In this document: positions 1-26,616 of the stretch, piece after piece | Layout: the number at the start of each line of letters is the position of its first letter | How positions within the stretch are numbered: the first letter of the stretch is position 1 | DNA from: a virus | Taxonomy: Duplodnaviria > Heunggongvirae > Uroviricota > Caudoviricetes | Direction: 5' to 3' (one strand) | Length of the DNA: 34,394 nucleotides | Virus record (IMG/VR): IMGVR_UViG_2531839446_000008 | Notes under the pieces: model-generated | Database searches by the model: none | Told to the model about the DNA's origin: nothing | Seen by the model: the letters and a program-made list of their open reading frames with translations, nothing else | Position numbers and translations under genes: made by a program

Positions 1-213
1 AAATTATTATTAATTTTTATGCGTTATACGGATAGCAGAAAACTCACGCCTGAAACGGATGCCAGTCACAAGACCGCTTCCCCGCAGCCCATCCGGCGAA
101 TTACCAGCCAGACACTGTTAGGTCCGGACGGCAAACTGATTATCGATCATGACGGGCAAGAATATCTGCTCCGTAAAACTCAGGCTGGCAAGCTGCTGTT
201 GACCAAGTAGCCT

Positions 214-1689
<1,476 letters not shown>

Positions 1690-1757
1690 CTAAACACCAG
1701 CAAACAGGAGGGTTATCGCTGAACCAACGTCGTTATCTGATTTATAGGAACCGCAGG

Positions 1758-2426
1758 TCACAGGCATCCCTGGAGAGCATGGAAATCAAAGGGGATAATC
1801 TGTGCCAATATTTCTGGCGTATCAATGCCCCCCGCGATGATGCAATTGCAACAAGGGGAAATTTGCGCCTGGATCGCACGAATAAACGGTTCGAAGGAAC
1901 GATGCGTGATTTGTTGCTGAATAAAACTTTTATCCAGCATGACGCGGGTGAAAAGACCATCAAAAACCGCTTTCATTGTGCTATTACCTGCACCCAAATT
2001 ACCTAACACAAGGGGATACATTTGCGATAAGGATAAAAGATCGCGATTATCTTTTCCTTCATTGAAATGCGGGTAATTCTCATTAATCAACAGTTCAATA
2101 AAGGGATATTTTAATAGTTCGCCTGCGAAATTATCCCTGTCTAATAATAATGTAGCCACTTGTGGCGTTAAATTAAGCCAGGCAAAGAGTTTATGTTGAA
2201 TAAAAAAGTGTTGGCATGATTTTAGTAATTCCAACTGTTCAGAAAATAATTGCCAATGTTGCTCCTCGGTAAGTTGCGCTATAACCCGACTCGTCGGGAT
2301 ACGAACCGTACCATCTTCACTGGAGAAATGGGTAATTAACTCAACGCCGACAAGGTCTTGCTGGTTATCTCTTATCGGCAGGAAATAGCAATCAGAATGA
2401 TAAAGATTCTCCAAAAAAATCTTCAT
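1758..2426 (-). CDS. ydiV: Anti-FlhDC factor YdiV (degenerate EAL-domain protein)
   Basis: 222-aa ORF beginning MKIFLENLYHSDCYFLPIRD, recognised as YdiV; sits between selO and nlpC as in E. coli. The C-terminus may differ from the K-12 length. Confidence 0.8.
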   Translation of the reverse strand: MKIFLENLYHSDCYFLPIRDNQQDLVGVELITHFSSEDGTVRIPTSRVIAQLTEEQHWQLFSEQLELLKSCQHFFIQHKLFAWLNLTPQVATLLLDRDNFAGELLKYPFIELLINENYPHFNEGKDNRDLLSLSQMYPLVLGNLGAGNSTMKAVFDGLFTRVMLDKSFIQQQITHRSFEPFIRAIQAQISPCCNCIIAGGIDTPEILAQIIPFDFHALQGCL

Positions 2427-2672
2427 GGTAACCGTCCCTCTCGAAGGATGTTTTTCAGTATCCGGCTAAAAGGGATGAGGCCATAAGACATAACAATTAC
2501 AGAAGGAGTAACTTTCATTTGTTCCATGTTAACCACTTTTTCAGGGGTCCTTTTTTTAGATTATCCTGATTATAAACGAATAATCCATTTACGGAATTTT
2601 TGTCTGCAAAATACTACTGTATTCAGGAGTAAATGGACGGCGATGTATCATCGCCGTCCATTTTTCGACATA

Positions 2673-3137
2673 CTAGATTCGTCTCGCCTGCCAGAAATTT
2701 TTCTGCCAATAGACATTATCAAGTGAGGAACGCATCACTCCCTTGCTGGTAGAGGCGTGGATAAATTGGTTGTTGGTATCGTAAATACCTACATGCAAAC
2801 CATTTTGTCCGGAACCCGTTTTGAAAAAGACCAGGTCACCTGGCAGCAACTCGTCTTTATCAATTTGCGTGCCAATAGAGGCTTGTTGCTTGGTTTCACG
2901 GGGCAGCTGCAAATCGAAACGATCGCGCATCGTCACAACCACAAATCCCGAACAGTCCACACCGCGCCGCGTCATGCCACCATAACGATACGGCGTGCCA
3001 TGCCAGCTTTGTAGCTGGTCGTTCAAACCGGCAATAACGGTAATCGAATCAGAAAGTCTGGCATTTGGCGGCGGTGCTTTATGGTGGCTACACCCGGCCA
3101 GAAACAGTGCTGTGATCAAAATAAGGCAGAAACGCAT
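2673..3137 (-). CDS. nlpC: NlpC/P60-family lipoprotein (peptidoglycan endopeptidase)
   Basis: 154-aa ORF with a lipoprotein signal and lipobox (LFLAGC) and a Cys-containing NlpC/P60-like core (DCSGF); located upstream of btuD. Confidence 0.85.
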   Translation of the reverse strand: MRFCLILITALFLAGCSHHKAPPPNARLSDSITVIAGLNDQLQSWHGTPYRYGGMTRRGVDCSGFVVVTMRDRFDLQLPRETKQQASIGTQIDKDELLPGDLVFFKTGSGQNGLHVGIYDTNNQFIHASTSKGVMRSSLDNVYWQKNFWQARRI

Positions 3138-3214
3138 TCCGTACGGTTCCTCTGTTTTTTATTCTTGCATTAATTTAGCGTCGTAATTACCCGATTTTCA
3201 AGATACTAATGAAA

Positions 3215-3964
3215 TCAGATGGTCGAAATCAGCATTCTGTGACCTTCGATATCCAGACGGCGAAAATTCATCCCATAGGCCTGCGCCAGATTTGCCGGCG
3301 TGAGCACCTCTTCTCTGCGTCCACTGGCCAGCATTTTTCCACCTTTTAGCAACCACGCCCGATGCGCATGACGCAATGTGTGGTTGAGATCGTGACTGCT
3401 CATCACAATCGCCAGTCCTTGCTGACACAGCGCGCTCAGAATTTTGTCTAAGGCGCTTTGTTGCGCAACATCAAGACTGTTCATCGGCTCATCAAGAAGC
3501 AGCAATTGGCCTGCGGGATTGGCTTGTGGTGTGATTTGCAGCACCACCGCAGCAAGACGTACGCGTTGCCATTCACCGCCGGAAAGTTGATTGGTGCTAC
3601 GTCCGAGTTTGTCATCAAGAGCCAGCGCCCCTGCGACATCATTCAGTAGTTCGGTACGCGTTTTATCGTGCTGATGCAGTGTCAGGTAGTGCCAGACCGG
3701 CATTGCAAACGGCGGCGTCTGCTGTTGTGAAAGATAGGCGCGATGCAGCGCGAGCTTTGTTGCAGACCATGCTTCCAGTGGTTGCCCCGCGAACTGAATG
3801 CTTCCCTTACCGCTGGTCATTCCGGCCATTCGCGCCAGTAAGGTACTCTTACCCGCGCCATTCGGCCCCACCAGGTGCAGGATCTCCCCAGCCCGAACCT
3901 CGCCAGAAAGCGGCCCCAGGCGGGTGGATTCCGCAACATCCTGTAACTGCATCACAATAGACAT
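3215..3964 (-). CDS. btuD: Vitamin B12 ABC transporter ATP-binding protein BtuD
   Basis: 249-aa ORF with Walker A (GPNGAGKST), ABC signature (LSGGEWQR) and Walker B (LLLDEP); last gene of the btuCED arrangement. Confidence 0.9.
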
Positions 3965-4515
3965 TATTTTGCCAACGCCAGTTTAATGCTTTCCATCACA
4001 ATGGGATCTTCCGGCGTCATATCCGGGGAAAAACGCTGGATGACCTTTCCGTCCCTGCCAACTAAAAATTTCTCAAAATTCCATAAAATATCATCAGGGT
4101 ACAGCGGTGCACGACCTTTGCTGACCATACGGGCATAGAATCCGCTCTCTTCCGGCGCGACTGCAGTCGGCGCTGCGGCAATCAATTTTTGATACAGCGG
4201 ATGGCGTCCTTCGCCATTAACTTCAATCTTACTGAACATCGGGAACGTCACCCCCCATGTGGTGGTGCAGTAAGTTTTAATCTCTTCATCGCTACCCGGT
4301 TCTTGCTCCAGAAACTGGTTACACGGAAATCCCAGCACCACAAAACCACGATCAGCCCAGGCTTTCTGAATATTCTCCAACTGCTCATATTGCGGCGTTA
4401 AGCCACACTTTGAGGCGACATTGACAATCAACAGCACATTACCGGCGTACTTCTCCAGCGTGGTCACTTCACCGTCGATATCTTTCACTACGGTCGTCAG
4501 AATGGAATCTTGCAT
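3964..4515 (-). CDS. btuE: Glutathione peroxidase-family protein BtuE
   Basis: 183-aa ORF with a GPx-like N-terminus ([17 protein letters not shown]) between btuC and btuD; its stop overlaps the btuD start. Confidence 0.9.
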
Positions 4516-4576
4516 CGTTTCTCCTGGGTGTGGTCAGTAAAAATCTTAGCTTTTAATCATAGACCGTCTTTTGCGG

Positions 4577-5557
4577 CTAACGTCCTGCTTTTAACAATAA
4601 CCAGATAAACACCGGCGCACCCAACGTTGCGGTGACCACGCCAATTGGCAGCTCTGCGGCAGCTAATGCCAGGCGCGCTACAATATCGGCCAGCAGCAAT
4701 GCGCTCGCCCCTGCCAGCGCGCAGCCGGGAAGTAATACGCGATGATCGGTTAAACCACACAGCCGGAGAATATGTGGGATCACCAGACCAATAAAGCCGA
4801 TAGCACCCGCCAGCGCCACACTGACGCCAACCATCCAGCCGGTCGCTGCCACCAGCACATTGCGCCAGAACCACAGGGGTAAACCCAGTTGCCGCGCCGA
4901 GATCTCGCCAAGTGCTAACATATTCATCGGCCTGGACTGACAACAGATCCACAACAATACGGGGATCAATGCCACCATCAGCCAGCTTTGCCGCCAGTCT
5001 ACGCCGCCAAAACCGCCCATCATCCAGTACATCAGCTGACGTAAATCAACAGAGGTGGAAAAGTAGATAGCCCACGTCATTAGTGCGCTACAGATAATCC
5101 CTAATGCAACGCCAGCCAGCAATAACCGACTGGTCGAAAGATGACGACGAGCGAAACGTAAGAGTATTAAAGTGATGATAAGTGCGCCTGCAATCGCACA
5201 CAGCCCTAGCGCCCAGTTGGGGAGTTGCCCTTGCCCAAGCAATACCGCGGCGATAAGCCCCACGCCTGCGCCGTTAGAGACGCCAAGTAGTCCAGGTTCT
5301 GCCAGAGGATTTTCAAACAACGCCTGCATTACAGCGCCGGATATAGCCAGCGCCGCACCAACCAGCAATACAGCCAGCGTACGTGGCAGGCGAATTTGCC
5401 AGACGAACAGTTCGCCACGAGGAGAAAACCAGTCACCTGGCAAAATCCATAGTTCACCGGCGCAAAGGCTTAAGAGAAGCGCCAGCAGCATCAAAACTGA
5501 CAGGCATAATAACCAGCGAATATTTTGTCGCTGCTGTTGGCGGGCAAGTGTCAGCAT
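4577..5557 (-). CDS. btuC: Vitamin B12 ABC transporter permease BtuC
   Basis: 326-aa highly hydrophobic multi-pass ORF of the FecCD permease type at the head of btuCED. Confidence 0.9.
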
Positions 5558-5613
5558 GGTATCCGTTCTGCTGAAGTGTCATGGCGTTGATTTTACGGTG
5601 ACTCTTCGACAGT

Positions 5614-5640
5614 GAAAAGAAAAAAGGCCGCAGAGCGGCC
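5614..5640 (-). terminator. Rho-independent terminator for a minus-strand transcript
   Basis: GGCCGC-aga-GCGGCC hairpin (5626-5640) preceded on the plus strand by an A-run, i.e. followed by a U-run on the minus-strand transcript; lies downstream of the 5750..6187 cargo gene. Confidence 0.5.
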
Positions 5641-5749
5641 ATAATTACATTCAAAAATCAATAAGTTACATGATTATCAATAACTTACAGACACACAAAA
5701 ACACAGCCAACCACAGCAAGTAACAGTGATGTGGTCACTTTGTGGATCA

Positions 5750-6187
5750 TCAGCCAACAAATTTAGCAACAAAATACGCGACCGCCGCCGTGAAAATGGT
5801 TGTGCACACTGGCACAATAATGCCACTCCAACGCCACTTCGTATTATCATCAACCTTGTCAAACCGCCGATTCATCTCATCCATAATCTTGTCAAAGCGT
5901 TTATCCATCGCTTCGGTAAGCTCACCCTTCAGGCTGTTAATGTCTGATTTGAGCTGCTCTTTCAGATTAGCTGTATCAGATTTAAGCTCACCTTTCAGAT
6001 TCGCAATATCGCATTCAAGCTCACCTTTCAGATGAGCAATGTCTGCTTTGAGCTCACCCTTCACCTCACCAACATCGGCTTTGGTTGAGAGGTTTGTAGT
6101 GCGTTCAGCAAGCGTCGCAAGGTCGTTTCTTGTTAGCGATAAATCACTTTCGAGTCGCTCAATTCGCCTTTCAAGTTTATCTGACAT
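5750..6187 (-). CDS. Coiled-coil protein with C-terminal transmembrane anchor (prophage cargo; function unknown)
   Basis: Start chosen at MSDKLERR, which has a strong SD (GGAGGTGGA) just upstream; the ORF could extend to 6304. Contains 11-residue LKGEL-type repeats and a hydrophobic C-terminal tail (IIVPVCTTIFTAAVAYFVAKFVG). Visibly AT-rich. Confidence 0.6.
   Translation of the reverse strand: MSDKLERRIERLESDLSLTRNDLATLAERTTNLSTKADVGEVKGELKADIAHLKGELECDIANLKGELKSDTANLKEQLKSDINSLKGELTEAMDKRFDKIMDEMNRRFDKVDDNTKWRWSGIIVPVCTTIFTAAVAYFVAKFVG
5918..6082. repeat. Five tandem 33-bp repeats inside the coiled-coil cargo gene
   Basis: Units of the form aagctcacc(t/c)ttcag...n...ttt repeat head-to-tail at 5918, 5951, 5984, 6017 and 6050, encoding the 11-aa LKGEL repeats. 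Confidence 0.8.
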
Positions 6188-6287
6188 TCCACCTCCACTA
6201 CTGCCGCCATCGCCGCCATGATAAAGCACATCACGCTCAGAATGCGACATACTACCTGCTGAATTACCGAACAGGTTTCTTGCTACA

Positions 6288-6683
6288 TTACCCATTTTCA
6301 CCATCCTGTGCTTTGTCTTTCTCCAACCACTTCAGCACCGCAGACGTACGGTAAAGGCTCAGGTAACCACAATTCAGGCAATGCAGCGTGTAATAAGTTT
6401 TGCGCATATCAGGTATGCTCTTAACATCACCCAAAAAAGTATAAGATACATAATGCTTTATGTTCTCTTTAATTAACTCACTCTGCTCCTCCAAGGGTAG
6501 ATTGTTAAAATTTTCTGGTTTCTTATTTTTATCCCAGCAAAGATCCATACTTTCAGGCACAGATAATCGAGACGATCCACATGAAGGGCAGACACTGGAA
6601 ACCTCCTTCTCAGACAAGAAACGGAAGAAGATTTCTGGCGTAATCTCCATCAGCCGCTCCTTATGTTTATTGACACGACTCAT
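6288..6683 (-). CDS. Hypothetical small protein with CxxC...CxxC zinc-ribbon-like motifs (prophage cargo)
   Basis: 131-aa ORF with CPSCG near the N-terminus and CLNCG near the C-terminus; its stop overlaps the extended ORF of the downstream coiled-coil gene. AT-rich. Confidence 0.5.
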   Translation of the reverse strand: MSRVNKHKERLMEITPEIFFRFLSEKEVSSVCPSCGSSRLSVPESMDLCWDKNKKPENFNNLPLEEQSELIKENIKHYVSYTFLGDVKSIPDMRKTYYTLHCLNCGYLSLYRTSAVLKWLEKDKAQDGENG

Positions 6684-6788
6684 CGACTTCTTATTGATTT
6701 CATCAGCTTCTTCTTTGCATTTATCTTCTATATATTTCGATAGTAAATAGTCATATAACTCTTTTTTGTAGGTTTTTTATTTCCATAG

Positions 6789-7766
6789 TTACATTCCTCC
6801 CAAGGGATTAAACCTCACCGCATCCTGCAGGTAATCCGGCGCAAGATGGGCATAAATCATCGTTGTCTGAATCTTTGCGTGCCCCAGAATTTTCTGGAGC
6901 GTCAGAATATTACCGCCGTTCATCATGAAATGACTGGCGAAGGTGTGGCGCAGCGCATGAACAGCCTGGCCGTCAGGAACATCAGGTGCGACCGTTTTGA
7001 TGACATCGCGAACCAATGGATAATCCAGCGTTGGAAACACTAGTTTCCCGCCCCGTTTTTTGATCTTTTCAAACAGATTTTCGGAGATCGGGACAGTGCG
7101 GTTTTTACTGTTCTTCGTTTTTGAAAAAGTGATTCGACAATGAAGAACACGGCGCTGCTCCAGTGCCGCTACCTCGCCCCATCGCGCCCCGGTCGACAGA
7201 AGGATTTCGACAGCCAGCCGTTCATCGGGATTTTCAGCCAGTGCATCCAGCAACTGAACACATTCAGACTTACTCAGGTATCCCATTTCGCGCTCGTTAA
7301 CCTTCATTCCTTTAAGGCCTTGAACGGGGTTATCGTTAAGAAAATGGCCGGATGAGATGAGTGCGGTAAACATCGCGCTTAACGCCCCAATCTCTCGATT
7401 TATGGTGCTGGGCTGTATCCCCTGCTCTATCCTGGACACACGTAGCTCGGTGAGCATCGTTGTATTAAGTTTATGCACGCACGGGTCATCCATTGCCTCA
7501 CTCAAGCGCAGCAATTTAAGGCGCGTGTTATGCCCTGACTTCATTAGCTGGCCGTGGTATTTCCACCACAAGTCAATAAGCACTGACAGAGGACGGCGAT
7601 CAATAGAGTTTCCTTTCCACTCATTGTTATGCTGTTGCGCCAGCACCCACCGCTCATATAAAACTGCATCCGATTTCGTTTTAAATTTTTTACGAATGCG
7701 TTTGCCTTTACGCCCCTCCGGGCGCATGTCAAGAAGATACCCTCCCGGAATTGATTTTATGCTCAT
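6789..7766 (-). CDS. int: Phage integrase (tyrosine recombinase), P2 Int-like
   Basis: C-terminal catalytic region contains HALRHTFASHF and the LGHAKIQTTMIYAHL motif with the catalytic Tyr. Start set at the internal MSIKS Met, because the longer 375-aa ORF would overlap the repressor gene. Confidence 0.85.
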   Translation of the reverse strand: MSIKSIPGGYLLDMRPEGRKGKRIRKKFKTKSDAVLYERWVLAQQHNNEWKGNSIDRRPLSVLIDLWWKYHGQLMKSGHNTRLKLLRLSEAMDDPCVHKLNTTMLTELRVSRIEQGIQPSTINREIGALSAMFTALISSGHFLNDNPVQGLKGMKVNEREMGYLSKSECVQLLDALAENPDERLAVEILLSTGARWGEVAALEQRRVLHCRITFSKTKNSKNRTVPISENLFEKIKKRGGKLVFPTLDYPLVRDVIKTVAPDVPDGQAVHALRHTFASHFMMNGGNILTLQKILGHAKIQTTMIYAHLAPDYLQDAVRFNPLGGM

Positions 7767-7815
7767 TCGTGAAACCCCAGCGTTACAAGACCACCATGCC
7801 CCCAGCGTTCCATGA

Positions 7816-8127
7816 TTAGCCGGGCTGTGTACCAGTCTTGCGGGATTTTTGAGAAGACGATGTGTTTTCTGGCCCATCAGGGGAGAGAGAGGGACTGATC
7901 TGCCCAGCAGCCTCATTTGTTTTTCCCGTCATAAGCCATATAGTGTATTTTTCGAAATCCTTAGAATTAATTACGCGATCAACAACGCTTAAACCAACCT
8001 CTCTTTTACCGCTCTCATAATTCTTTATAGTTCCGAGATTTATCCCAGTAACATCTGCAAACTCAGCTTGAGTTAACCCTTCACTTTTCCGTATCTCTTT
8101 CAGTTTTTTTTCGTACCCACTTGACAT
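7816..8127 (-). CDS. C: P2 C-type immunity repressor (HTH)
   Basis: 103-aa ORF whose HTH (LTQAEFADVTGINLGTIKNYESG) and following YTIWLMTG motif resemble P2 repressor C as I recall it; divergent from the early operon. Confidence 0.75.
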   Translation of the reverse strand: MSSGYEKKLKEIRKSEGLTQAEFADVTGINLGTIKNYESGKREVGLSVVDRVINSKDFEKYTIWLMTGKTNEAAGQISPSLSPDGPENTSSSQKSRKTGTQPG

Positions 8128-8218
8128 GGTGGTCTCCAGACGACTAAATTAACCCTAAAAGTCGCCTAGAGACGACTTTTAGCAACAAATAACCACAGAC
8201 TGAACAGGTTATCACATC
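8128..8218. promoter_or_regulatory. Immunity switch region (divergent Pc/Pe promoters and operator)
   Basis: Intergenic between C (minus) and the cox-like gene (plus); direct repeats AGACGACT at 8138-8145 and 8170-8177 and a TTGACA hexamer at 8121-8126. Confidence 0.45.
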
Positions 8219-8497
8219 ATGACAAAGCTCTTGAACACATACGAGCAAGCGGATTTTGAGCGTTTGGCGGCGTTCTACCCATACCGCGATGAGCATGGAT
8301 TACCGGTACTCGAAGAAAGCCTGAAAGATTACGCGAAGCGTACCAATCAAACTGTTAATGCAGTGAAAAGGCAGGCTGACAGAGCAGCCCTTCCCATCAA
8401 CCAAGAAGAAAAAAACTCAAAACGTACAGTAAATCTCTTCGCAATTTTCCTGAAAACCATCAGAAACGCAGAGAAATACGTGCAGATGACAAAATAA
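8219..8497 (+). CDS. Cox/Apl-like early regulatory protein (putative excisionase/transcriptional switch)
   Basis: First gene of the early rightward operon; 92 aa, with an HTH-like segment (RTNQTVNAVKRQADRAALPI) similar in pattern to the P2 Cox HTH. Confidence 0.45.
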   Translation: MTKLLNTYEQADFERLAAFYPYRDEHGLPVLEESLKDYAKRTNQTVNAVKRQADRAALPINQEEKNSKRTVNLFAIFLKTIRNAEKYVQMTK

Positions 8498-8511
8498 CGA
8501 GGTGTCATTTT

Positions 8512-8850
8512 ATGCTGAAGCAACGCCGTAATTTTCGTACCGGAGCAGAACGCCACGCTAACCGTTTCACTACCAGTGCATCACGCAGCAACATCCGCTA
8601 CAGCCTGAGTGATACACACGCAACGCCGGATGGCTACCCAGTAAAACAAATCGGCGAGCACGCCTGGCTGATTGAGAAAGCTGGAATCGTGATCCACAAA
8701 TGCCCACGCAATCCGTTTACCGGAAACCGCATTTTTGCATTGAGCTGTGGCGACAATCAGTTTGGGCAGGATTTCACATTGTACGAAGCGCTACGCACAG
8801 TTGATCGTCTGCTGCGCGGACAGAATTTCATTAAACAGGCTGATTTATAA
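8512..8850 (+). CDS. Hypothetical early-operon protein
   Basis: 112-aa ORF in the early operon; no recognisable motif. Confidence 0.4.
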   Translation: MLKQRRNFRTGAERHANRFTTSASRSNIRYSLSDTHATPDGYPVKQIGEHAWLIEKAGIVIHKCPRNPFTGNRIFALSCGDNQFGQDFTLYEALRTVDRLLRGQNFIKQADL

Positions 8851-10065: not shown

Positions 10066-10361
10066 GCACCATCAACCACCAGAAGCTACGCGAACTGGCA
10101 TTTGCCCTGCAACGAATGGCAACGCCTCAAAAATTACTGGCATTTCGCGCAATGCTCTCGCCGTCTGCTGTGCTGGCACTGCTGGATCAGCTGGAGCACG
10201 CCAAAACCACGGCCCCTGCCATTCGCCTGACGCTCCATCATGAAATCGCTGATTTCTGCGCAACGCTGGGAGCACCTGGCGAACCGGAAACGCCGGAAGC
10301 AATGCAGCAAGAGCTGCTGCAACGCATTGACAAGGTTTTTGATTTTTTTCTGAACCAGTAA
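10062..10361 (+). CDS. Hypothetical early-operon protein
   Basis: 99-aa ORF; its start overlaps the upstream stop. Confidence 0.4.
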   Translation: MSTINHQKLRELAFALQRMATPQKLLAFRAMLSPSAVLALLDQLEHAKTTAPAIRLTLHHEIADFCATLGAPGEPETPEAMQQELLQRIDKVFDFFLNQ

Positions 10362-10382
10362 GAAACCAGAACATGCACACAC

Positions 10383-10640
10383 AAAAAAACCGCTTGCCAT
10401 GCCGCAATCGGTCAGGTTACATTTCCGCTGCACCTCATAAAACGGGTGCCGGGATTCTCAACCCGATACAGAGCAAAGCGCATAACCGCGCAAGCGGTTT
10501 TTTGTGCGTACTGTATTGCCACGTCTTTTTCGCGTCAGAATTATGGCGGGGCGTACGGGGCCGACTTCGGTCGGGCCGGATTCTTTGCTCTCCGGTGTTG
10601 AGAACCCTGTACGTCTCGCCACCCCGAGATTCTCAACTCT
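10383..10640 (+). ncRNA. Highly structured intergenic region (candidate terminator/attenuator or small RNA)
   Basis: aaaaaaaccgcttgc (about 10383) pairs with gcaagcggtttttt (about 10490); ggccgac-ttcg-gtcgggcc hairpin near 10560; nested long-range complements gattctcaac/gttgagaac and gagcaaag/ctttgctc. No protein-coding ORF. Confidence 0.35.
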
Positions 10641-10682
10641 GGATGGTGAGTTATTTCTATCACCGAGCAAAGAGGCCACACC

Positions 10683-10913
10683 ATGGCAAACCGCAAACAA
10701 CAGCGCGCATACGCTGCGCGTCGTCACATCCAGACTGAAATCAACCGTAGACTTTTCCGCGCATCACGCGTCGCGCAAATCATGCACATCAATATGCTGC
10801 ATGAGCGCAGCCACGCGCTATCGAACATCTATTCCGCCTCTGTTTTCAGCTATCTGGCGGATGATCTGCACGAGCTTCAACAGCTCATCCAGCAGCAAAA
10901 CAAACTCCATTAA
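10683..10913 (+). CDS. Hypothetical protein
   Basis: 76-aa basic ORF downstream of the structured region. Confidence 0.35.
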   Translation: MANRKQQRAYAARRHIQTEINRRLFRASRVAQIMHINMLHERSHALSNIYSASVFSYLADDLHELQQLIQQQNKLH

Positions 10914-10985
10914 TTCCTGTTCCGGGCCTTTCCTGCACCTTGCGGCGGGAGGCCTTCGCACATCTGTAGTAAAGAGAATTGCAGC

Positions 10986-11375
10986 ATGATTGACGCTCAT
11001 GACTTCACAAGATGGGTGCGCACACAGGACACCCGTCTGGCTCCCGTTCTTCAGGGATTATTTGATCTCTACATCCGTGGTCGTGACAACAGAGCACGCA
11101 CCACAAAACCAGAGAATGCAGACACCCTTTATTTCACAGTAGACGACTGCTACCGCGTGGACTTCACACCACACGGGCTGGCGTTGCACTGCCTGACACC
11201 ACACGGCGAATCACTACTGGCGTATTACGACTCCCCGGCCTCCGTATTTGCGGCAATGCTGGCGCATCGCACTGCTGGCGGGTGTGCCTCGCTGAGTGAA
11301 TACACCGCTGAATTTAACCGCCTTTCCACCCTCTTCTCGCAGGAGTGGCAGCGCGTGACGGGATACCAGCCATGA
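10986..11375 (+). CDS. Hypothetical protein immediately upstream of gpA
   Basis: 129-aa ORF; its stop overlaps the gpA start (ATGA). Confidence 0.4.
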   Translation: MIDAHDFTRWVRTQDTRLAPVLQGLFDLYIRGRDNRARTTKPENADTLYFTVDDCYRVDFTPHGLALHCLTPHGESLLAYYDSPASVFAAMLAHRTAGGCASLSEYTAEFNRLSTLFSQEWQRVTGYQP

Positions 11376-14212
11376 GTGAGTTTGCATGGAGCTGGAATGA
11401 ACCACGGCCAGCCATTGATCCAGCCAGATTTACGGAGCACAGGCAGGAAACTGAAACCGACCTGCAACGCGCCATCCGTTACTACCTTGAGGCGGACAAA
11501 AGGGCACAGAAAGAACAGGAAGCGAAGGAAGAAGCCTTTTTCGCACAATCCGCCATGGGTAAAAAACTCATGGCATCCCTTGAGGAAGCCGGACAGCGTG
11601 AAAAGCTGGCACAGAGCATCATCAGTAAGCGCCGGGCAACAGAACAAGACCCGGTAGCCCGTGCCTTTGCCACACTGAAGGCGCTTCCCGTTTATCTGCG
11701 AGAACCTCTGAGCCGCCACCTCTCTTTCCTGCGCAAGAAGCAGGAAGCCGATCGTCAGAAAGGCAAAAAGAGCTGGCAGGCGGAACGCTACGCGCGCGGA
11801 ACCCTGCGCAAAATATTCGAACGTCTGGACCGCACCGACCACCGCTGGCTGACACCGGGTTATCGCTCCCTTGCCGGACGCGAACGCCTGGACGATTTGC
11901 TTTACCTGCCGCAGCTCAACAAACACCAGATACAGACGCTGGCCACCATGACGGCGGCGATGTTCAGCAGCACCTTCGAAAAACTCTGCGATGGCTTTGG
12001 CGCGACTGATGGCGAACTGACCATGGATGTAACGCTGAAGGCGTATCAGATGCTGGCCCGCATGGCGTTACACCTGCACGCCATGCCTCCACATTATGAC
12101 GCACTGACAACAGACAAAGACCGGAGGAACGAACCGGACACGGAGCTGCTGCCGGGCGCAATCCTTCGCCTGACCTGTGCGGAATGGTGGAAACGCAAAC
12201 TGTGGCTGTTACGTTGCGAGTGGAGAGAAGAACAACTCCGCGCCGCCTGTCTGGTTTCCAGAAAAACATCACCCTATCTGAGCCAGGACGCGTTAAGCGA
12301 GTTTCGCGCACAGCGCGAGAAAACACGCGATTTCCTGAAAAGTTTCATGCTGGAAAATGAAGACGGGTTCACGATTGATCTCGAGACAGTGTATTACGCG
12401 GGAGTAAGTAACCCGGTTCACCGTAAGGCAGAAATGATGGCCACCATGAAGGGACTGGAACTTCTGGCCGAAGCCCGTGGCGACAGAGCTGTGTTTCTGA
12501 CTGTCACCTGCCCGTCAAAATACCACGCCACAACAGAGAACGGTCATCCGAACCCCAAATGGAACGGGGCCACCATGCGCGACTCCAGCGATTACCTGGT
12601 TAACACGTTTTTTGCGGCGGTCCGCAAGAAACTGAACCGCGACGGCCTGCGCTGGTATGGCATCCGCACGGTGGAGCCTCACCATGACGGCACTGTGCAC
12701 TGGCATATGATGGTCTTTGCTCATCCGGAAGAAATCGACAGCATCGTGGCCATCACCCGCGATATTGCCATTCAGGAAGACCGCCACGAGCTGGGCAATG
12801 ATATTACTCCGCGCTTTAAGGCGGAGTATGTCGACGGCTCAAAAGGCACGCCAACCAGCTACATCGCCACCTACATCGGAAAGAACCTGGACAGCCGCGC
12901 CGTGGATGGTATCGACCCGAAAACGGGCAAGCCACGCGTTGACCACGAAACCGGAAAATCAATGGCCGAGAGCGTGGAGCGCGCCATCGGCTGGGCGCGC
13001 CTTCACCGGGTCCGCCAGTTCCAGTTCTTTGGCATCCCCTCCCGTCAGGTGTGGCGTGAACTGCGCCGCCTTGCCAGCCAGATGGCACGCAACCCGGAAG
13101 GCCCGCAACGACTGAAGGATGACGCAATGGATGCAGTGCTCGCTGCCGCTGATGCCGGGTGTTTTGCCTCCTACATTGAAAAACAGGGCGGCGTACTTGT
13201 TCCACGCAAAGACTACCTGATTCGCACCGCCTACGACCTCGCAGATGAGCTGAACGATTACGGCGAACAGAGCGTACAGATTTACGGGATCTGGTCACCA
13301 CTCATCGGGGAGTCTTCCCGTGTGTGCACACATCCGGATAACTGGAAGCTGGTAAGACGTAAACCGGAAGCGGAAGACAGCGCCCGCGAAAATGGTTTTG
13401 ACCTTCAGGGCGGCCCTGCCGCCCCTTGGACTCGTGGCAATAACTGTCCCCGTGTACAGGAAACGGACAACAACGGGACAGAACAGCCGGAAGAACGGCC
13501 AGCACCGTGGCCGCAGCTCCCTGACGGCGTTGATGTGGATGAATGGATGCGCTCACTGAAACGGCACGAACGCCGGGCGCTGATGCGTTCGCTTCGTGAC
13601 AAACAGGCAAAAAACAGCAGTGATGAAATGCAGAGCTGGACACAGAGCCGCAAACAGCAGCGGCCTTTGCCTGATAACCACGAATTACTCGCTAAAGAAT
13701 GGCGGGAGTCTGCTGAATCTCTCGGCCTGCATATCGGTGAACAACAGATGCAGCACCTGTTACGGGGCGGCAGTCTGTACGTTGACGGCAGCATCATTGC
13801 ACCGCAGGGATTTGAAATTGTACGCAAACCGGATACCCGCCCGGACAGCCGAATCACGCAGCTCTGGCAGCGCCTGAGCCGTAATCATGGCGTAAGCAGC
13901 ACGGAGATCCGCCATAACCCGGTCGCCAGCTATCTGACACAGCTGGGGGCATCAGACCCTGAAGCCGCCGCACGCCTGGCATCCACACTTCAGCAGGACC
14001 AGAACACCATGAAAACACCCGTTACCGTGCTTTCTGACATGCTGCGCGCCATCCGCGACGCAGAGCACGCACAGAGAATCAGTGAAACCACTGAACGCGC
14101 CCGCCGCAAAGCAGACCTGCTGCGGGGTGGCCTGACCAGTGGAAACAAAAAACAGACAGAAACGGGACTCACGAATCCCGTAAATGAGCAAAAAACGCGC
14201 AGCGATATATGA
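11372..14212 (+). CDS. A: Rolling-circle replication initiator/endonuclease, P2 gpA-like
   Basis: HUH motif (VHWHMMVF) and Tyr-containing region typical of P2 A-family initiators; about 946 aa from the ATG at 11372, longer than I recall P2 gpA to be. Confidence 0.8.
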   Translation: MSEFAWSWNEPRPAIDPARFTEHRQETETDLQRAIRYYLEADKRAQKEQEAKEEAFFAQSAMGKKLMASLEEAGQREKLAQSIISKRRATEQDPVARAFATLKALPVYLREPLSRHLSFLRKKQEADRQKGKKSWQAERYARGTLRKIFERLDRTDHRWLTPGYRSLAGRERLDDLLYLPQLNKHQIQTLATMTAAMFSSTFEKLCDGFGATDGELTMDVTLKAYQMLARMALHLHAMPPHYDALTTDKDRRNEPDTELLPGAILRLTCAEWWKRKLWLLRCEWREEQLRAACLVSRKTSPYLSQDALSEFRAQREKTRDFLKSFMLENEDGFTIDLETVYYAGVSNPVHRKAEMMATMKGLELLAEARGDRAVFLTVTCPSKYHATTENGHPNPKWNGATMRDSSDYLVNTFFAAVRKKLNRDGLRWYGIRTVEPHHDGTVHWHMMVFAHPEEIDSIVAITRDIAIQEDRHELGNDITPRFKAEYVDGSKGTPTSYIATYIGKNLDSRAVDGIDPKTGKPRVDHETGKSMAESVERAIGWARLHRVRQFQFFGIPSRQVWRELRRLASQMARNPEGPQRLKDDAMDAVLAAADAGCFASYIEKQGGVLVPRKDYLIRTAYDLADELNDYGEQSVQIYGIWSPLIGESSRVCTHPDNWKLVRRKPEAEDSARENGFDLQGGPAAPWTRGNNCPRVQETDNNGTEQPEERPAPWPQLPDGVDVDEWMRSLKRHERRALMRSLRDKQAKNSSDEMQSWTQSRKQQRPLPDNHELLAKEWRESAESLGLHIGEQQMQHLLRGGSLYVDGSIIAPQGFEIVRKPDTRPDSRITQLWQRLSRNHGVSSTEIRHNPVASYLTQLGASDPEAAARLASTLQQDQNTMKTPVTVLSDMLRAIRDAEHAQRISETTERARRKADLLRGGLTSGNKKQTETGLTNPVNEQKTRSDI

Positions 14213-14254
14213 AGCGCGCAGAAAACAGGCAAAAACGGGATTTCAGAATCCCGT
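14162..14254. promoter_or_regulatory. Two copies of a 20-bp palindrome flanking the gpA stop (candidate parC/ParR operator or terminator pair)
   Basis: acgggactcacgaatcccgt (14162-14181) and acgggatttcagaatcccgt (14235-14254), each an acggga(t)..(a)tcccgt inverted repeat, just upstream of parM. Confidence 0.4.
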
Positions 14255-14288
14255 AAACGATTAATTAATCAACATAAGGAAAAGCGAC

Positions 14289-15248
14289 ATGAAAATTTGT
14301 ATCGACGACGGCTCCACCAACATCAAGCTGGCATGGACTGAGAACGGCGAACGCCGCAACGCCATCAGCCCGAACAGCTTCAAGTCGGAATGGTCTGCGC
14401 CGTTCGGTGGCACGCAGCCCGCGAACTACATGCTTGATGGCGTGCGCTATGGTTTTGATCCGGTCAGCGATCGCTTTGTCCAGACGACCGACACGCAATA
14501 CCAATACAGCGATGTGAATGTCATTGCCATTCATCACGCGCTGGTCAAATCAGGCATCACACCACAGGAGGTGGATGTGGTTGTCACCCTGCCACTGAGC
14601 GAGTATTTCGACACAAACGCACAGCCGGACATGGCCAACATCAACCGCAAAAAAGCGAACGTTATGCGCCCGGTGGAGTACCAGAACGGCGAAGCATTCA
14701 CTATCCGTAACGTGCGGGTTATGCCTGAATCCATTCCGGCTGGCTTTAAAGCACTGGCTGACATGAGTCCGTTTGAATCCCTGCTGATTGTGGATTTGGG
14801 CGGAACCACGCTGGATGTGGCAAAGGTTCAGGGGCAACTGGCAGGTATCAGCCAGGTGTTTTGCGATCCACACGTAGGCGTTTCTCTGATGGCCGATGCC
14901 GTGCTGTCGGTGATGGCCACTAACGGTATGCGCACCAGTCACCACATCGCCAATACCATTATCGAACATCGCTATGATGAAGCCTGGCTGCGCCAGCACA
15001 TCCACAATGACGCGCATTACGACAGCCTGATGGCGGTTATTCGTGAAAAGGAGGAAACACTGAAACAACGCGTGATCCGCGCGCTGGCGGTTTTTTCGGG
15101 TTACGGGCGGGTGATGGTTGTCGGTGGAGGGGCGGAGATTGTGGCACCCGCTATCCGCGAAGCCTGCGGAGTTAATGCGACTTTCATCGCGGACGGGGTG
15201 CCACAGTTTGCTCTGGTTAATGGGCTGTACGCAATGGACAAGGAGTAA
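14289..15248 (+). CDS. parM: Actin-like segregation ATPase ParM (StbA family)
   Basis: 319 aa; N-terminus MKICIDDGSTNIKLAW and internal motifs (VMPESIPAG, DLGGTTLD, VMVVGGGAE) closely parallel plasmid R1 ParM as I recall it. Confidence 0.85.
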   Translation: MKICIDDGSTNIKLAWTENGERRNAISPNSFKSEWSAPFGGTQPANYMLDGVRYGFDPVSDRFVQTTDTQYQYSDVNVIAIHHALVKSGITPQEVDVVVTLPLSEYFDTNAQPDMANINRKKANVMRPVEYQNGEAFTIRNVRVMPESIPAGFKALADMSPFESLLIVDLGGTTLDVAKVQGQLAGISQVFCDPHVGVSLMADAVLSVMATNGMRTSHHIANTIIEHRYDEAWLRQHIHNDAHYDSLMAVIREKEETLKQRVIRALAVFSGYGRVMVVGGGAEIVAPAIREACGVNATFIADGVPQFALVNGLYAMDKE

Positions 15249-15252
15249 ACCA

Positions 15253-15564
15253 ATGACGACTCCAACCAGACGGATAAGTTTCTATCTGAAGCCCACCGCC
15301 GTCAAGAACGAAGGAGAAGCATGCGCCTGGCTGGACAGCCTTACACCAGAAGCCCGCAAAAGCGGCCAACGCGTGGCTTTTCTGGCCGGGCTGGCACTTC
15401 TGAAAATGAATCCGGCAGAGGCTTACCGACTGGCTGCATGGGCTGATGATGAGGTGTTATCAGTGACACAAACCAAGACAGAACGCCCCGCGTCACAGCC
15501 AGTATCAACCGCACAGATAACCAGTCAGATGGCCGGAAATATCCGGGCGTTATTTCCTGAATAA
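15253..15564 (+). CDS. parR: ParR-like centromere-binding adaptor
   Basis: 103 aa from the ATG at 15253; the segment ISFYLKPTAV...AWLDSLTPEARKSGQRVAFLAGLALL parallels R1 ParR. The 15118 ORF is an out-of-context 5' extension overlapping parM. Confidence 0.7.
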   Translation: MTTPTRRISFYLKPTAVKNEGEACAWLDSLTPEARKSGQRVAFLAGLALLKMNPAEAYRLAAWADDEVLSVTQTKTERPASQPVSTAQITSQMAGNIRALFPE

Positions 15565-15848
15565 CATCAGGGCGTATTCGCCCTGCCACCAATCCCATAA
15601 CATAAAGAACGGGGTGCAAATCACTATACACCCCGTTCCAATACAAACCATCAGAAGATCTACACATCTTTCTCAAATGGCCAAGTAATCGAGCTGGTTC
15701 AGGAATAAGCATGCTGCCAACACAAGTGAAGGAGATAAAACTGTAGAACTGATCAATCGTTGGAAACAAGTATTGACAGTATGTTCGAGTAACCCAACTG
15801 GATAGATTTTATGCTGATTATCCATACAGTAAAAAAGTAAGGATACTC

Positions 15849-15942: not shown

Positions 15943-17025
15943 ATGGTAAACGTGAGGGAGGATGAACTTTTCAAACTCATCGAGCAAGGCATCAAAGGCA
16001 ACGCAAATGCATTTACACTCCTATGCAGAAAGATGATTAACAACATCCGTAAAAATGATGAGGCTTTAGCTTCTAAGCTGGCTTCGTTAGTTGCTGAGGG
16101 AACAGTATTACGTGGGGCATCTAGTAAGGCTCCTATGCCTGTGGATGGAGACTCCAGACGAAACCTTTTGCAGGAAACATCTGTCAACGCAATTGTTGAA
16201 GAACCTGTATGGAATACGGATATCTCAAAGAAGCTGGAGTCAATTGTTAACGAAAGAGAGAATGCGGTTTCTTTGTTCAAAGCTGGTCTTGAACCTGTGA
16301 AGACGGTTTTACTTTCTGGCCCGCCAGGCGTAGGCAAAACAATGTCCGCACATTGGCTTGCTGCAAAGTTAAATTTACCTCTTTTAACATTGGATCTCTC
16401 ATCTGTAATGAGTTCTCTTTTGGGAAAAACAGGTAATAATATTAAATCCGTTATGGATTATGCCAAAGAGAAACCATGTGTCCTTTTGCTTGATGAATTT
16501 GATGCTGTTGCAAAAAGACGTGATGATGACAGGGACGTTGGAGAATTAAAACGTTTAGTTACTGTACTCCTACAGACCATAGATGAGTGGCCAGCGACCT
16601 CGCTTCTTGTTGCTGCGACTAATCACCCTGATATCTTAGATCCGGCTGTTTGGCGTCGATTTGAGCACATCCTTAAATTTAATATGCCATCAGTAGAACT
16701 GATAGATAGATATTTAGTCAATCATAATATTGAACCTGAACTATCTAAAAAACTTGCACCATTATTAGATGGCATGTCCTTTGCCATCATTAACCGTATT
16801 TTGAATTTCTCCAAAAAGAATGAGGTACTTAGAAATATTCCATTTGAAAGCTCATTAATAGAAGCCGTAATTACGGAGAGGGTTTCATTGGATGAGTTTA
16901 GCGATAATGATCTCAATATAATTAAATATCATTTTGACGGTTTTTCAAATAGGAAGATAGCTGAATTAGTTGGTGTTTCACATCCAACAATCGCGAATAA
17001 ATTACAAAAGTGGGGGATTAAATGA
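15943..17025 (+). CDS. Classic-clade AAA+ ATPase with C-terminal HTH
   Basis: Walker A (GPPGVGKT), Walker B (LLLDEFD), sensor/Arg-finger region (ATNHPDILDPAVWRRF); C-terminal HTH-like tail (NRKIAELVGVSHPTIANKLQKW). AT-rich. Confidence 0.8.
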   Translation: MVNVREDELFKLIEQGIKGNANAFTLLCRKMINNIRKNDEALASKLASLVAEGTVLRGASSKAPMPVDGDSRRNLLQETSVNAIVEEPVWNTDISKKLESIVNERENAVSLFKAGLEPVKTVLLSGPPGVGKTMSAHWLAAKLNLPLLTLDLSSVMSSLLGKTGNNIKSVMDYAKEKPCVLLLDEFDAVAKRRDDDRDVGELKRLVTVLLQTIDEWPATSLLVAATNHPDILDPAVWRRFEHILKFNMPSVELIDRYLVNHNIEPELSKKLAPLLDGMSFAIINRILNFSKKNEVLRNIPFESSLIEAVITERVSLDEFSDNDLNIIKYHFDGFSNRKIAELVGVSHPTIANKLQKWGIK

Positions 17026-19226
17026 TGGAAAGGAACTTACTTTTAGGTAACGGTCATGTTCTGACAAAAAAGGAACCTTTGCCTAAAGGAAGGGATGGTA
17101 AGCGCTATCCCTATACTCTTGAAGAAGTAAGGGAGCATTTAAACCCAGAGATTGATACTTTACTCTCACGCTTTCGCAGTTTGGATGATGCGGCTAAGCC
17201 AAGGGGGGAGAGTGTATTCAATTTAACTTTACACCCAGCGTTTTTGGGTAAAAGCTACTTTCCGGAAGGATTGCTTAGAGCGACAGGTTTACGGGATGTC
17301 GGCAGCCGTCAGGTAATCATTCGCCCACGGAAAGCGGCACGTCAGTGCGATCAGAATAAGGACTTAGTAACGGCGCAACTGTTTGTTAGCGGTGATGATG
17401 ATGCCGTTATAAGATTTAAGGAAATTTTAAATTCCCCTACAGCTCCGAAGGGCGTACAAAAGGATTTGATCGAAATTGAAAGTGTTAGCTTTTTTGAAGG
17501 AAAAGAGAGAGCACGCAATTTTGAGCATGCGAAAAGTGATTTGATAAAATTTGAAGTGGTTCTTCATGCTGGGGTTGAAGACGATGATATCGTTAAAGCC
17601 TATATTAGCTATGCGGCACAATATGATGTCTCTGTTGATTACAAAAGTAGAATCCAAGTTGGTGGGCTGACTTTCATCGTTGCACACGCGCGACCTGAAG
17701 ATATGAAAAAAACACTCGATTTTTCATTAATCCGCGTTGTGCGGCCGATGCCGTCTCTCAGGTGTACTCAGCCGAACATTGTCAGAAAGTTATCTAATAT
17801 AGTTACACCGGAGCTCCCTAATTCTAAAGCTGTTCTTGAATCCGAACGTATTGCCATTTTTGATGGTGGCTTGGGGACAGCTGACTTGAGTAATTGGGTT
17901 ACGGAATACGTGTATCCAGACACCAAAGAAACAAGCGGATTATTATTGCAGCACGGTAATGAAGTGACATCCACTTTCTTATTCGGACGTGTCGAGGAAA
18001 ATGCACCTTCTTTTAAAAGACCGTTTATGAATGTAGATCATTATAGAGTTCTTTCACCGACATCAGGTGACAATGGCAATTGGGATTTATTTGATGTCCT
18101 TAAGAAAATACAGTCCGTTCTTGATAGTGGTGACTATAAGTTCGCTAATCTAAGTATTGGTCCTCATCTTCCAATTGGTGATGATGAGGTTCATGTATGG
18201 ACTGCTGTTTTAGACCAAATCTGTGCTAAGCATGGGATATTACTTACTGTTGCTGTTGGGAATGATGGCAATGAGGACGGTGATGCAGCGAGAATACAAC
18301 CTCCTTCCGATATGGTAAACGCGCTAGCGATTGGTGCTGCTGATCGTAGCGGTGAAAAATGGGGGCGGGCACCATATAGCTGTATTGGGCCAGGCAGAAG
18401 CCCCGGATTCGTTAAACCTGATGGTGTTATTTTTGGTGGAAGCGACGACGAGCCTTTTTACACTTACAACCCTCTGCTTGGTTCTATAGTTGGAGTTCAA
18501 GGAACCAGTTATGCCTCTCCATTAGCATTGAGAACGGCCGCTGGAGTTGCGGCTCTATCAGGAACTCCATTGAACACCATTGCATTGAAAGCGTTGCTTG
18601 TTCATCATGCTGAAACATCAAGAAAATATTCGCGTGAACATATCGGTTGGGGACGGTTTAGTGAGGATCCTAACGTTTTAATCGATTGTCCAAATGATAC
18701 TGCTACAGTAATTTACTATGGTTCATTAGCAAAAAATAAATATTTAAGGGCACCGATCCCATTCCCTGATGTTCCCTTTGACGAAGCATTTGAGCTTACC
18801 GCTACTTTATGCATTCAAACCCCAGTAGATCCTGAACATTCAGTAAACTATACAAGGGCCGGTATGCAGGTAACTTTCCGCCCAAGATTCGGCCTTGACG
18901 ATACCGATACAGATGATTTCTTTGGTCAAAAAAGCCAGTATAAGACTGAAAGGGAGTGTAGGAGTGAAGGTCATAAGTGGGAAACTTGTTTGCACAGAAG
19001 CAAAAAGTTCAGTGCTGATACATTATTAAGCGATCCAGTTTTTGATATACGGTATCATGCCCGAGATTCTTCGCGCCATGTTAAGGGAGTTTCAGCCCCT
19101 GATATGCAATATGCGATGGTAATAAGCGTAAGGGTAAAAGACTTTGATTTATATAATGTTATTCGCCAGCGATATACAATTCTGAATCCTATTCAACTGC
19201 GCACACAAATTTCTCTCGACACGTAA
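17022..19226 (+). CDS. Large S8 (subtilisin-like) serine peptidase, no signal peptide
   Basis: 734 aa; Asp (IAIFDGG), His (QHGNEVT) and Ser (GTSYASP) motifs in subtilase order; about 270 aa N-terminal and about 200 aa C-terminal extra regions; start overlaps the ATPase stop (ATGA). Confidence 0.8.
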   Translation: MMERNLLLGNGHVLTKKEPLPKGRDGKRYPYTLEEVREHLNPEIDTLLSRFRSLDDAAKPRGESVFNLTLHPAFLGKSYFPEGLLRATGLRDVGSRQVIIRPRKAARQCDQNKDLVTAQLFVSGDDDAVIRFKEILNSPTAPKGVQKDLIEIESVSFFEGKERARNFEHAKSDLIKFEVVLHAGVEDDDIVKAYISYAAQYDVSVDYKSRIQVGGLTFIVAHARPEDMKKTLDFSLIRVVRPMPSLRCTQPNIVRKLSNIVTPELPNSKAVLESERIAIFDGGLGTADLSNWVTEYVYPDTKETSGLLLQHGNEVTSTFLFGRVEENAPSFKRPFMNVDHYRVLSPTSGDNGNWDLFDVLKKIQSVLDSGDYKFANLSIGPHLPIGDDEVHVWTAVLDQICAKHGILLTVAVGNDGNEDGDAARIQPPSDMVNALAIGAADRSGEKWGRAPYSCIGPGRSPGFVKPDGVIFGGSDDEPFYTYNPLLGSIVGVQGTSYASPLALRTAAGVAALSGTPLNTIALKALLVHHAETSRKYSREHIGWGRFSEDPNVLIDCPNDTATVIYYGSLAKNKYLRAPIPFPDVPFDEAFELTATLCIQTPVDPEHSVNYTRAGMQVTFRPRFGLDDTDTDDFFGQKSQYKTERECRSEGHKWETCLHRSKKFSADTLLSDPVFDIRYHARDSSRHVKGVSAPDMQYAMVISVRVKDFDLYNVIRQRYTILNPIQLRTQISLDT

Positions 19227-26238: not shown

Positions 26239-26562
26239 GTGAGCACCATTCAAACAGGGATCTCAGAGCAGGTTATTGCGTGGCTCTTTGACCATCTGCC
26301 AACGGTGTATGCAGTAGGCGCGGCGGTCAGCATTTCCGCGCTGATGAGTCTTTATGACGGACGAACGCTGGTTCAGACCGTAACGGGATCGCTGGCGTGC
26401 GGCGTTCTTGCCATGGCCGTGGCCGGGTCGTTGCGCTTCTTCGGAGTTCCTGAAGATGCCGTGACGTTTTTCGGCGCATCTATCGGTTTTATGGGCGCAG
26501 AAAAAGCACGCGACAAGATCATTGCCGCCTTTAACCGCATAACCCAAAAGGGAGATGAATAA
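26239..26562 (+). CDS. Putative holin
   Basis: About 107 aa from the GTG at 26239; hydrophobic helices (AVGAAVSISALM, ACGVLAMAVAG) and a charged C-terminus; sits between X and the endolysin. The start is uncertain. Confidence 0.55.
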   Translation: MSTIQTGISEQVIAWLFDHLPTVYAVGAAVSISALMSLYDGRTLVQTVTGSLACGVLAMAVAGSLRFFGVPEDAVTFFGASIGFMGAEKARDKIIAAFNRITQKGDE

Positions 26563-26616
26563 GTCTCAGGCTTAAAGCTGGTAATCACCATAAAAATCAT
26601 TCACAGAGGTGGCGAA

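Follow-up and report, generated by a model that had tools for sequence, protein, structure and literature searches.

The stretch of DNA examined here, 34,394 nucleotides of a tailed-phage record (Caudoviricetes; IMG/VR record IMGVR_UViG_2531839446_000008; the whole stretch is called the window below), carries what we predict from its sequence to be an intact type II (ParM/ParR) DNA-partition cassette. It lies directly behind gpA, the replication gene of a P2-like (P88-type) E. coli prophage. Comparisons with related genomes point to an old, conserved and vertically inherited part of the replication module of one P2-like branch, which appears to comprise the Xuanwuvirus phages of Escherichia, Citrobacter and Salmonella together with relatives in Plesiomonas, Hafnia, Serratia and Enterobacter. 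By a modest balance of probability, we consider that its role is to partition phage circles outside the chromosome while the phage is transiently excised or replicating. The features on which the argument turns are as follows, in window positions.

11345-14212, plus strand: gpA, replication endonuclease (955-codon open reading frame, about 946-955 residues; PF05840, E=7.9e-131).
14146-14187: 42-nt repeat unit 1; dyad 1, ACGGGACTCACGAATCCCGT (ACGGGACT-CACG-AATCCCGT), lies within it at 14162-14181; candidate ParR site and parM-distal half of a parC-like centromere/operator.
14219-14260: 42-nt repeat unit 2; dyad 2, ACGGGATTTCAGAATCCCGT (ACGGGATT-TCAG-AATCCCGT), lies within it at 14235-14254; candidate ParR site nearer parM.
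14260-14272, plus strand: ATTAAT(TAAT)CAA box, conserved, between dyad 2 and the parM ribosome-binding site.
14289-15248, plus strand: parM, predicted actin-like segregation ATPase (319 residues; Pfam, R1 ParM structure, PHROG 691).
15253-15564, plus strand: parR (StbB family), predicted adaptor (ATG at 15253, stop codon ending at 15564; 103 residues; PF10784).
15568-15585 and 15606-15639: two GC-rich hairpins, terminator-like, scored on the minus strand.

Both cassette genes have the same orientation as gpA, from which parM is separated by a 76-bp spacer. The parR ATG lies 5 nt past the parM stop codon, and its GGAG ribosome-binding site overlaps the end of parM. A preliminary description of this DNA had read the open reading frame behind gpA as a ParM and the next as a ParR-like adaptor, and both assignments were borne out by the profile and structure matches. 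ParM residues 1-157 match StbA_N (E=1.6e-82) and residues 159-316 match ParM_C (E=6e-68), each over the full length of the profile, and the R1 ParM structure (PDB 1mwk) aligns across residues 2-316 (E=1.6e-92). The nucleotide-binding motifs IDDGSTN, VMPESIPAG, DLGGTTLD and GGGAE are the same in the window protein and in R1 ParM, and the protein also matches PHROG 691, ‘partition protein’ (E=8.4e-91). Ratios of nonsynonymous to synonymous substitution (dN/dS) against six orthologues, all of them intact, were 0.04-0.18, and parM appears to be under purifying selection. A defence role was also checked, and no PADLOC defence model matched ParM or ParR.

The adaptor covers positions 1-71 of the 72-position PF10784 profile (E=6.7e-24) and matches PHROG 2515, ‘partition protein’, over all of its 103 residues (1-103). 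A search of the PDB with the single ParR sequence gave no match and a profile of 20 homologues was needed, which matched the ParR of pB171 (2JD3) over the N-terminal DNA-binding domain (E=4.3e-11). At its N-terminus ParR has a conserved RRISFYLKP strand and helices; these are followed by a linker that varies, and the C-terminus is a conserved tail, N-x-x-x-LFP. The C-terminal motif, N-x-x-x-(L/M)F, was kept in all 20 aligned ParRs, with N96 and F101 invariant, and this candidate ParM-docking tail lines up with the C-terminal end of R1 ParR.

Within the P88 group, ParM is 92-99% identical while ParR is 53-97% identical. The ParRs of this group comprise at least two allelic types of helical core plus a hypervariable linker, with the first 13 residues and the NIxxLFPE tail fixed; they are also shorter (103 residues) than other ParRs, from which they differ in having no helical segment of about 12 residues. 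DNA similarity between the window and various P88-like genomes stops inside parR (at ~15307 or ~15398) or just past it. Judging from these alignments, the recombination that swaps cargo evidently often ends inside parR, making the gene a mosaic.

The preliminary description had also pointed to two 20-bp palindromes bracketing the region upstream of parM. Both palindromes are real, each lying in one of the 42-nt direct repeats, which are 81% identical and 73 bp apart from start to start. They do not, in the event, bracket the upstream region as a whole: dyad 1 is within the 3′ end of gpA, whose last ~65 nt hold repeat 1, and dyad 2 is in the spacer. The 24-nt consensus occurs at these two places only in the window, with none expected from 100 shuffles. 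A pair of GGG-N10-CCC elements stands at nearly the same distance from the parM ATG, and with nearly the same spacing, in three lineages:

Window: elements at -125 and -52, spacing 73 bp; ATTAAT(CAA) box at -29.
Plesiomonas: elements at -131 and -59, spacing 72 bp; ATTAAT(CAA) box at -29.
Hafnia: elements at -128 and -55, spacing 73 bp; ATTAAT(CAA) box at -25.

The sequence inside the elements differs among the three lineages. Within the P88 group the dyads are either invariant or changed in such a way that their symmetry is kept or extended, as in the E. albertii and Salmonella copies, and in P88-like variants the invariant dyads are accompanied by the invariant N-terminal RRISFYLKP strand of ParR. 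The ATTAAT box, which is possibly a weak -10 element, is invariant across P88-like copies. Serratia and Enterobacter phages have a long inverted repeat and a second palindrome in place of the paired dyads. The relatives from a plasmid and from an integrative and conjugative element (ICE), loci L014 and L015, have many ~11-bp direct repeats of an ATCTC type in two clusters, which is the classical parC layout. From these comparisons the phage site looks like a reduced, two-site candidate centromere/operator, and it is here that the cassette departs furthest from the textbook system. We found no earlier description of a conserved two-dyad site with 72-73 bp spacing in the literature. Phasing of A-tracts at 10-10.5 bp in 14140-14290 was weakly enriched (about 2% of shuffles reach the observed value; eight periods, uncorrected) and is not relied on here.

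How widely is the cassette distributed? A megablast search with 14100-15700 found DNA 94-98% identical in 14 phage records, among them P88, Xuanwuvirus P884B11, Citrobacter PhiSM, 520873 and 503458, which places the window phage among the P88-like (Xuanwuvirus) phages. Every P88-like phage record carries the cassette, and near-identical DNA is present in 1308 of 5426 complete E. coli genomes, about a quarter. A replication endonuclease gene adjoins the cassette in all E. coli matches among the matches listed, and the gpA counterparts of all close relatives are annotated ‘replication endonuclease’. The preliminary description had not expected partition systems in phages of the P2 type. That expectation did not hold, given the share of E. 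coli genomes, the presence of the cassette in every P88-like record and its occurrence in four further genera; the module is a routine core gene of this prophage family.

Among 50,697 phage records, ParM relatives were confined to these P88-like phages and the P1-like phage-plasmid D6 (47.5% identical). In the protein database, a cluster of >92% identity is followed by a gap and then by proteins of 62% (Hafnia, Plesiomonas), 57-58% (Serratia) and 54% (Enterobacter) identity. The P2-like prophages of Plesiomonas, Hafnia, Serratia and Enterobacter share one gene order: gpA, none to two small open reading frames, ParM, a PF10784 protein, variable genes, in some cases ogr, and portal. ParMs of about 50% identity are located in a Dickeya ICE or a Mangrovibacter integrated plasmid. 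In a neighbour-joining tree, midpoint-rooted and without bootstrap, the P2-borne ParMs group together, apart from those of plasmids and ICEs. Scanning bacterial contigs with ParM returned three near-identical loci only (E. albertii, Salmonella and an assembly labelled Vagococcus), and the diverged relatives came from the protein database and contig look-ups.

Three side observations belong here. NZ_JBQPOM010000071.1, a 226-kb contig of the assembly labelled Vagococcus sp. WN89Y (a Gram-positive genus), encodes a ParM that shares 97% identity with that of the E. coli phage; contamination by enterobacterial DNA or a mixed culture is the most likely source. In the Hafnia prophage, a separate 167-residue open reading frame lies between gpA and parM. 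The window gpA is long, with more than 400 residues beyond the Pfam GPA domain (194-518), and the gpA proteins of relatives have 785, 789, 835 and 907 residues.

What might such a cassette do for an integrating phage? We propose that ParR dimers would bind the two dyad sites, which straddle the gpA stop codon and which, being 73 bp or about seven helical turns apart, would both lie on the same face of the helix. The conserved C-terminal tail of ParR would capture the ends of ParM filaments, and ATP-driven polymerisation of ParM would push sister phage circles apart. The cassette is probably transcribed with the early (lytic) operon, because it has the same orientation as gpA and follows it with no recognisable promoter or plus-strand terminator in between: a sigma-70 scan found no plus-strand promoter upstream of parM and none at the ATTAAT box, and no plus-strand terminator was detected between gpA and parM. 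It would act on the extrachromosomal genome, both after infection and before integration, and after induction, when rolling-circle replication by gpA yields monomeric circles. Its role would be to distribute and retain phage circles in a transient episomal phase, not the permanent upkeep of a plasmid prophage.

A more specific version of this proposal is put forward tentatively. It holds that the dyads form a minimal centromere overlapping the end of gpA, and that ParM filaments either separate and spread the monomers produced by gpA rolling-circle replication, or hold an unintegrated genome in both daughter cells, all within the P2-type replication cycle and not as plasmid maintenance. If so, burst size or lysogenisation efficiency would be raised, and an integrating virus would for the first time have been shown to be served by a canonical R1-type ParMRC, one with two ParR sites only.

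Several points weigh against the partition of transient circles. The case for co-transcription with gpA is weak, as it draws on the absence of consensus signals. The candidate ParR sites number two only, against the many ~11-bp repeats of the plasmid and ICE relatives; therefore segrosome formation is put forward here as a proposal, and the sites might serve as an operator alone. It is not obvious why partition should be needed by a lytic phage, whose host is dead after a single cycle, and about three quarters of E. coli P2-like phages do without the cassette (PMC9122126). Our search of the literature found no experimental study of the phage cassette, whether of binding, filaments or phenotype.

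The alternative that survives best, which we nevertheless regard as unlikely, is that these phages have a dual lifestyle and persist for many generations as low-copy plasmid prophages instead of integrating. An episomal state was suggested in the preliminary description as well, and has been proposed in both papers that reported the cassette: Pfeifer et al. (2021; bioRxiv 10.1101/2020.11.09.375378), who flagged P88 in a screen for phage-plasmids, and Rousset et al. (2022; PMC9122126), who listed the cassette among the systems of the P2 gpA-gpQ hotspot. The phage-plasmid D6 uses a related ParM, as given above. One record also fits this alternative. NZ_CP148288.1 (pZ1323PEC0009-2, from a cat isolate) is a circular ‘plasmid’ of 34,461 bp that consists of a complete P88-like genome with its integrase. 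Its positions 20000-34461 (14.5 kb) are 100% identical to an integrated prophage (NZ_CP148378.1, 2669387-2683854), which sits beside pdxB in Z1323HEC0067, a human sister isolate from the same study series, so the same phage is on record in both states.

Against this, the circular record begins exactly at the att boundary, which is what an assembler yields for an excised circle, and the two possibilities are indistinguishable in it. A search for attP junctions, as episomal or tandem copies would have, found an intact attP in one piece in none of the 442 genomes that matched the integrase/attP query of that type; a circular record linearised at att is invisible to this test. Of the 1456 places at which the cassette occurs in E. 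coli, 1454 are chromosomal, and, the circular record apart, the ‘plasmid’ hits were prophages within replicons (megaplasmids) or contigs of 0.2-1.4 Mb, or a fragment. The available data thus show integrated copies almost exclusively, plus the one circular 34.5-kb record. Integrase and repressor are always present, and the cassette lies in an operon that would be expected to be repressed in lysogens. The rolling-circle initiator gpA is the only replication gene identified in the window and no plasmid-type theta replicon was identified, with the small open reading frames of the early operon left unscanned. A phage-plasmid is an autonomous replicon with plasmid-type replication control and with lysogeny independent of integration; the copy in the window encodes an integrase and sits in the chromosome next to btuC.

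It is less likely still that the palindromes are not a centromere at all, and instead are tandem terminators for leftward transcription or a ParR operator, with ParM otherwise employed (for example in positioning replication or packaging factories) or dispensable. Both dyads are indeed terminator-like on the minus strand, with an 8-pair stem followed by a T-rich run, and there are two sites and no iteron array. However, the Plesiomonas equivalents, GGGACAACAAAAACCC and GGGACAACACTAACCC, form stems of 3 bp at most and yet keep the position and the 72-bp spacing, and retention of the spacing without a usable hairpin therefore favours recognition by a protein over an RNA hairpin. Furthermore, the 42-nt repeats reach well past the hairpins, and stronger hairpins already end the cassette at 15568-15639. 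Intrinsic terminators were accordingly judged an unlikely explanation of the dyads on the strength of the Plesiomonas counterparts.

The hairpins at 15568-15639 mark both the end of the cassette and the boundary of the variable hotspot. DNA similarity to other P88-like phages stops at or before ~15585-15606, and the genes downstream of parR vary between relatives while parMR is constant at the gpA edge. In the window, the plus-strand block at 15943-19226 has a low G+C content (0.39-0.43) and encodes an AAA ATPase with a C-terminal helix-turn-helix and an S8 peptidase, which are recognised by the models for the anti-phage defence proteins IetA (E=3.6e-89) and IetS (E=6.6e-41). The same IetAS pair is present in strain Z142-6, and it is followed by the portal gene on the opposite strand, as in the closest relative. 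The G+C content of parMR is 0.54-0.55, within a range of 0.54-0.58 for gpA and parMR together. As the variable block of low G+C content begins past parR, parMR lies outside the hotspot cargo, and IetAS is the actual cargo.

These observations bear on the suggestion, made in the preliminary description, that the cassette is plasmid-derived hotspot cargo. On such a reading it would have been captured recently from a plasmid and would either have no role for the phage or act on plasmids, for example by incompatibility against ParMRC plasmids. Although the cassette falls within the P2 hotspot interval of Rousset et al., is counted among their hotspot systems and has a ParM about half identical to plasmid ParMs, we consider this the least probable of the readings and very doubtful: the cassette keeps its place at the edge nearest gpA whichever genes lie to its right, its G+C content equals that of the phage, its position is conserved across five genera, the phage ParMs form a distinct clade, neither protein has a match among defence models, and a tblastn search of 72,556 plasmid records with ParR returned copies of this prophage only, with no genuine plasmid carrying a detectable ParR relative. 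This makes ParR a phage-specific adaptor, one unlikely to engage the centromeres of plasmids. The dyads are also unlike the ATCTC-type iterons, which likewise makes cross-reaction unlikely, and an anti-plasmid incompatibility role was rejected as improbable on these two grounds.

How does the cassette compare with known partition systems? The ParMRC loci of R1/NR1 (StbA/StbB/parC) and par2 of pB171 have the same order of cis site (in the phage a candidate one), parM and parR. The phage ParM aligns end to end with R1 ParM, a single Pfam family takes in the ParRs, and the motif of their C-terminal tail is kept. In contrast to these plasmid loci, the phage cassette is found in an integrating P2-like phage, directly behind a rolling-circle initiator, and has no recognisable sigma-70 promoter. 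In R1-type plasmids, parC has some ten short direct iterons arrayed around a promoter, whereas the candidate site of the phage is a pair of 20-bp dyads with a spacing of 73 bp, the first of which falls in the gpA coding sequence.

The best functional analogy is srpMRC of the SXT/R391 ICEs, which was shown to stabilise their transient excised, relaxase-driven rolling-circle form and to be expressed only when the excision and replication genes are (Carraro et al. 2015; PMC4489591). In both cases a type II partition locus is strictly conserved in elements that are normally integrated, and the excised circle replicates in a rolling-circle manner. However, the phage proteins are close relatives of R1 ParM and ParR, to which SrpM and SrpR have only a distant relationship; the host of srpMRC is an ICE and not a virus; and the function of srpMRC has been demonstrated, while that of the phage cassette is a proposal.

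A second parallel is the AlpC/AlpA/alpS system of Corynebacterium glutamicum prophage CGP3, in which circular CGP3 DNA is tied by AlpAC to actin-like filaments and the phage DNA replicates efficiently only with AlpAC present (Donovan et al. 2015; PMC4446434). Here too an integrated prophage encodes an actin-like ATPase and a co-transcribed adaptor; AlpA binds sites upstream of its operon, and the CGP3 genes are induced early. AlpC differs in being a divergent actin-like protein of an actinobacterial prophage that is not P2-like. The phage-plasmids P1 (ParAB), N15 (SopAB) and D6 (StbA-type ParM) are likewise temperate phages with a partition cassette. They possess dedicated plasmid replicons and do not normally lysogenise by integrating, unlike the window phage, which has an integrase, lies beside btuC and has gpA as its only identified replication gene.

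The genomic setting of the window copy is as follows. The chromosomal genes selO, an NlpC/P60 peptidase gene, btuD, btuE and btuC occupy 214-5557, in the left part of the window. Rightward from btuC come two open reading frames of no assigned function, a tyrosine integrase gene (6789-7916, minus strand), a gene for a repressor-like helix-turn-helix protein and then the rightward early operon, which ends with gpA-parM-parR. The right end of the prophage falls outside the window. As the chromosomal genes adjoin the integrase and repressor, the phage is integrated; the order of Cox, gpA, portal, terminase, GPO and capsid genes in the closest annotated relative is of the P2 type (Peduoviridae). 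The preliminary description had taken the element for an integrated P2-like prophage, and the chromosomal genes, the integrase and the P88-type identity confirm this.

Several further features of the prophage were observed. The two open reading frames that separate btuC from the integrase (5750-6683, minus strand; 184 and 131 residues; G+C content ~0.44-0.46) occupy a position next to btuC at which, going by the gene order of K-12, we would presumably expect ihfA. The first of them, of 184 residues, has weak matches to LmuB- and ZorA-type models (E ~1e-5 to 3e-4). Both may be prophage cargo at the att end or a separate insertion. Positions 1-8532 and 10070-11693, which include the integrase, immunity and att regions and some of the early operon, bear no relation to the corresponding DNA of P88-like prophages that are otherwise 96-98% identical (those compared were L003 and L001, the latter being NZ_CP148288.1). 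Relatives of the L003/L001 type integrate beside pdxB, and the window prophage adjoins btuC. Given the unrelated region and the different insertion site, the integration module has been swapped. In the late region, ~600 bp (26539-27155) have no counterpart in the three close relatives compared, and the flanks are 95-98% identical.

Both the cassette and the episomal hypothesis had already been published, and the genes are routinely annotated by the Prokaryotic Genome Annotation Pipeline (PGAP) and PHROGs; in the PhiSM paper (PMC6456863) the gene appears only in a list, as a fitness factor. New here are the synteny across genera, the separate ParM clade, the conserved two-dyad site and the mosaic ParR. 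Roughly one complete E. coli genome in four carries the cassette in a prophage, and the role of an actin-like segregation machine in an integrating virus is a question of interest. If the cassette acts on transient circles, the precedents of srpMRC and AlpAC would extend to the P2 family, and the line between integrative prophages and plasmids would blur further. The phage site would then also provide a natural, minimal two-dyad centromere for studying how ParR caps ParM filaments.

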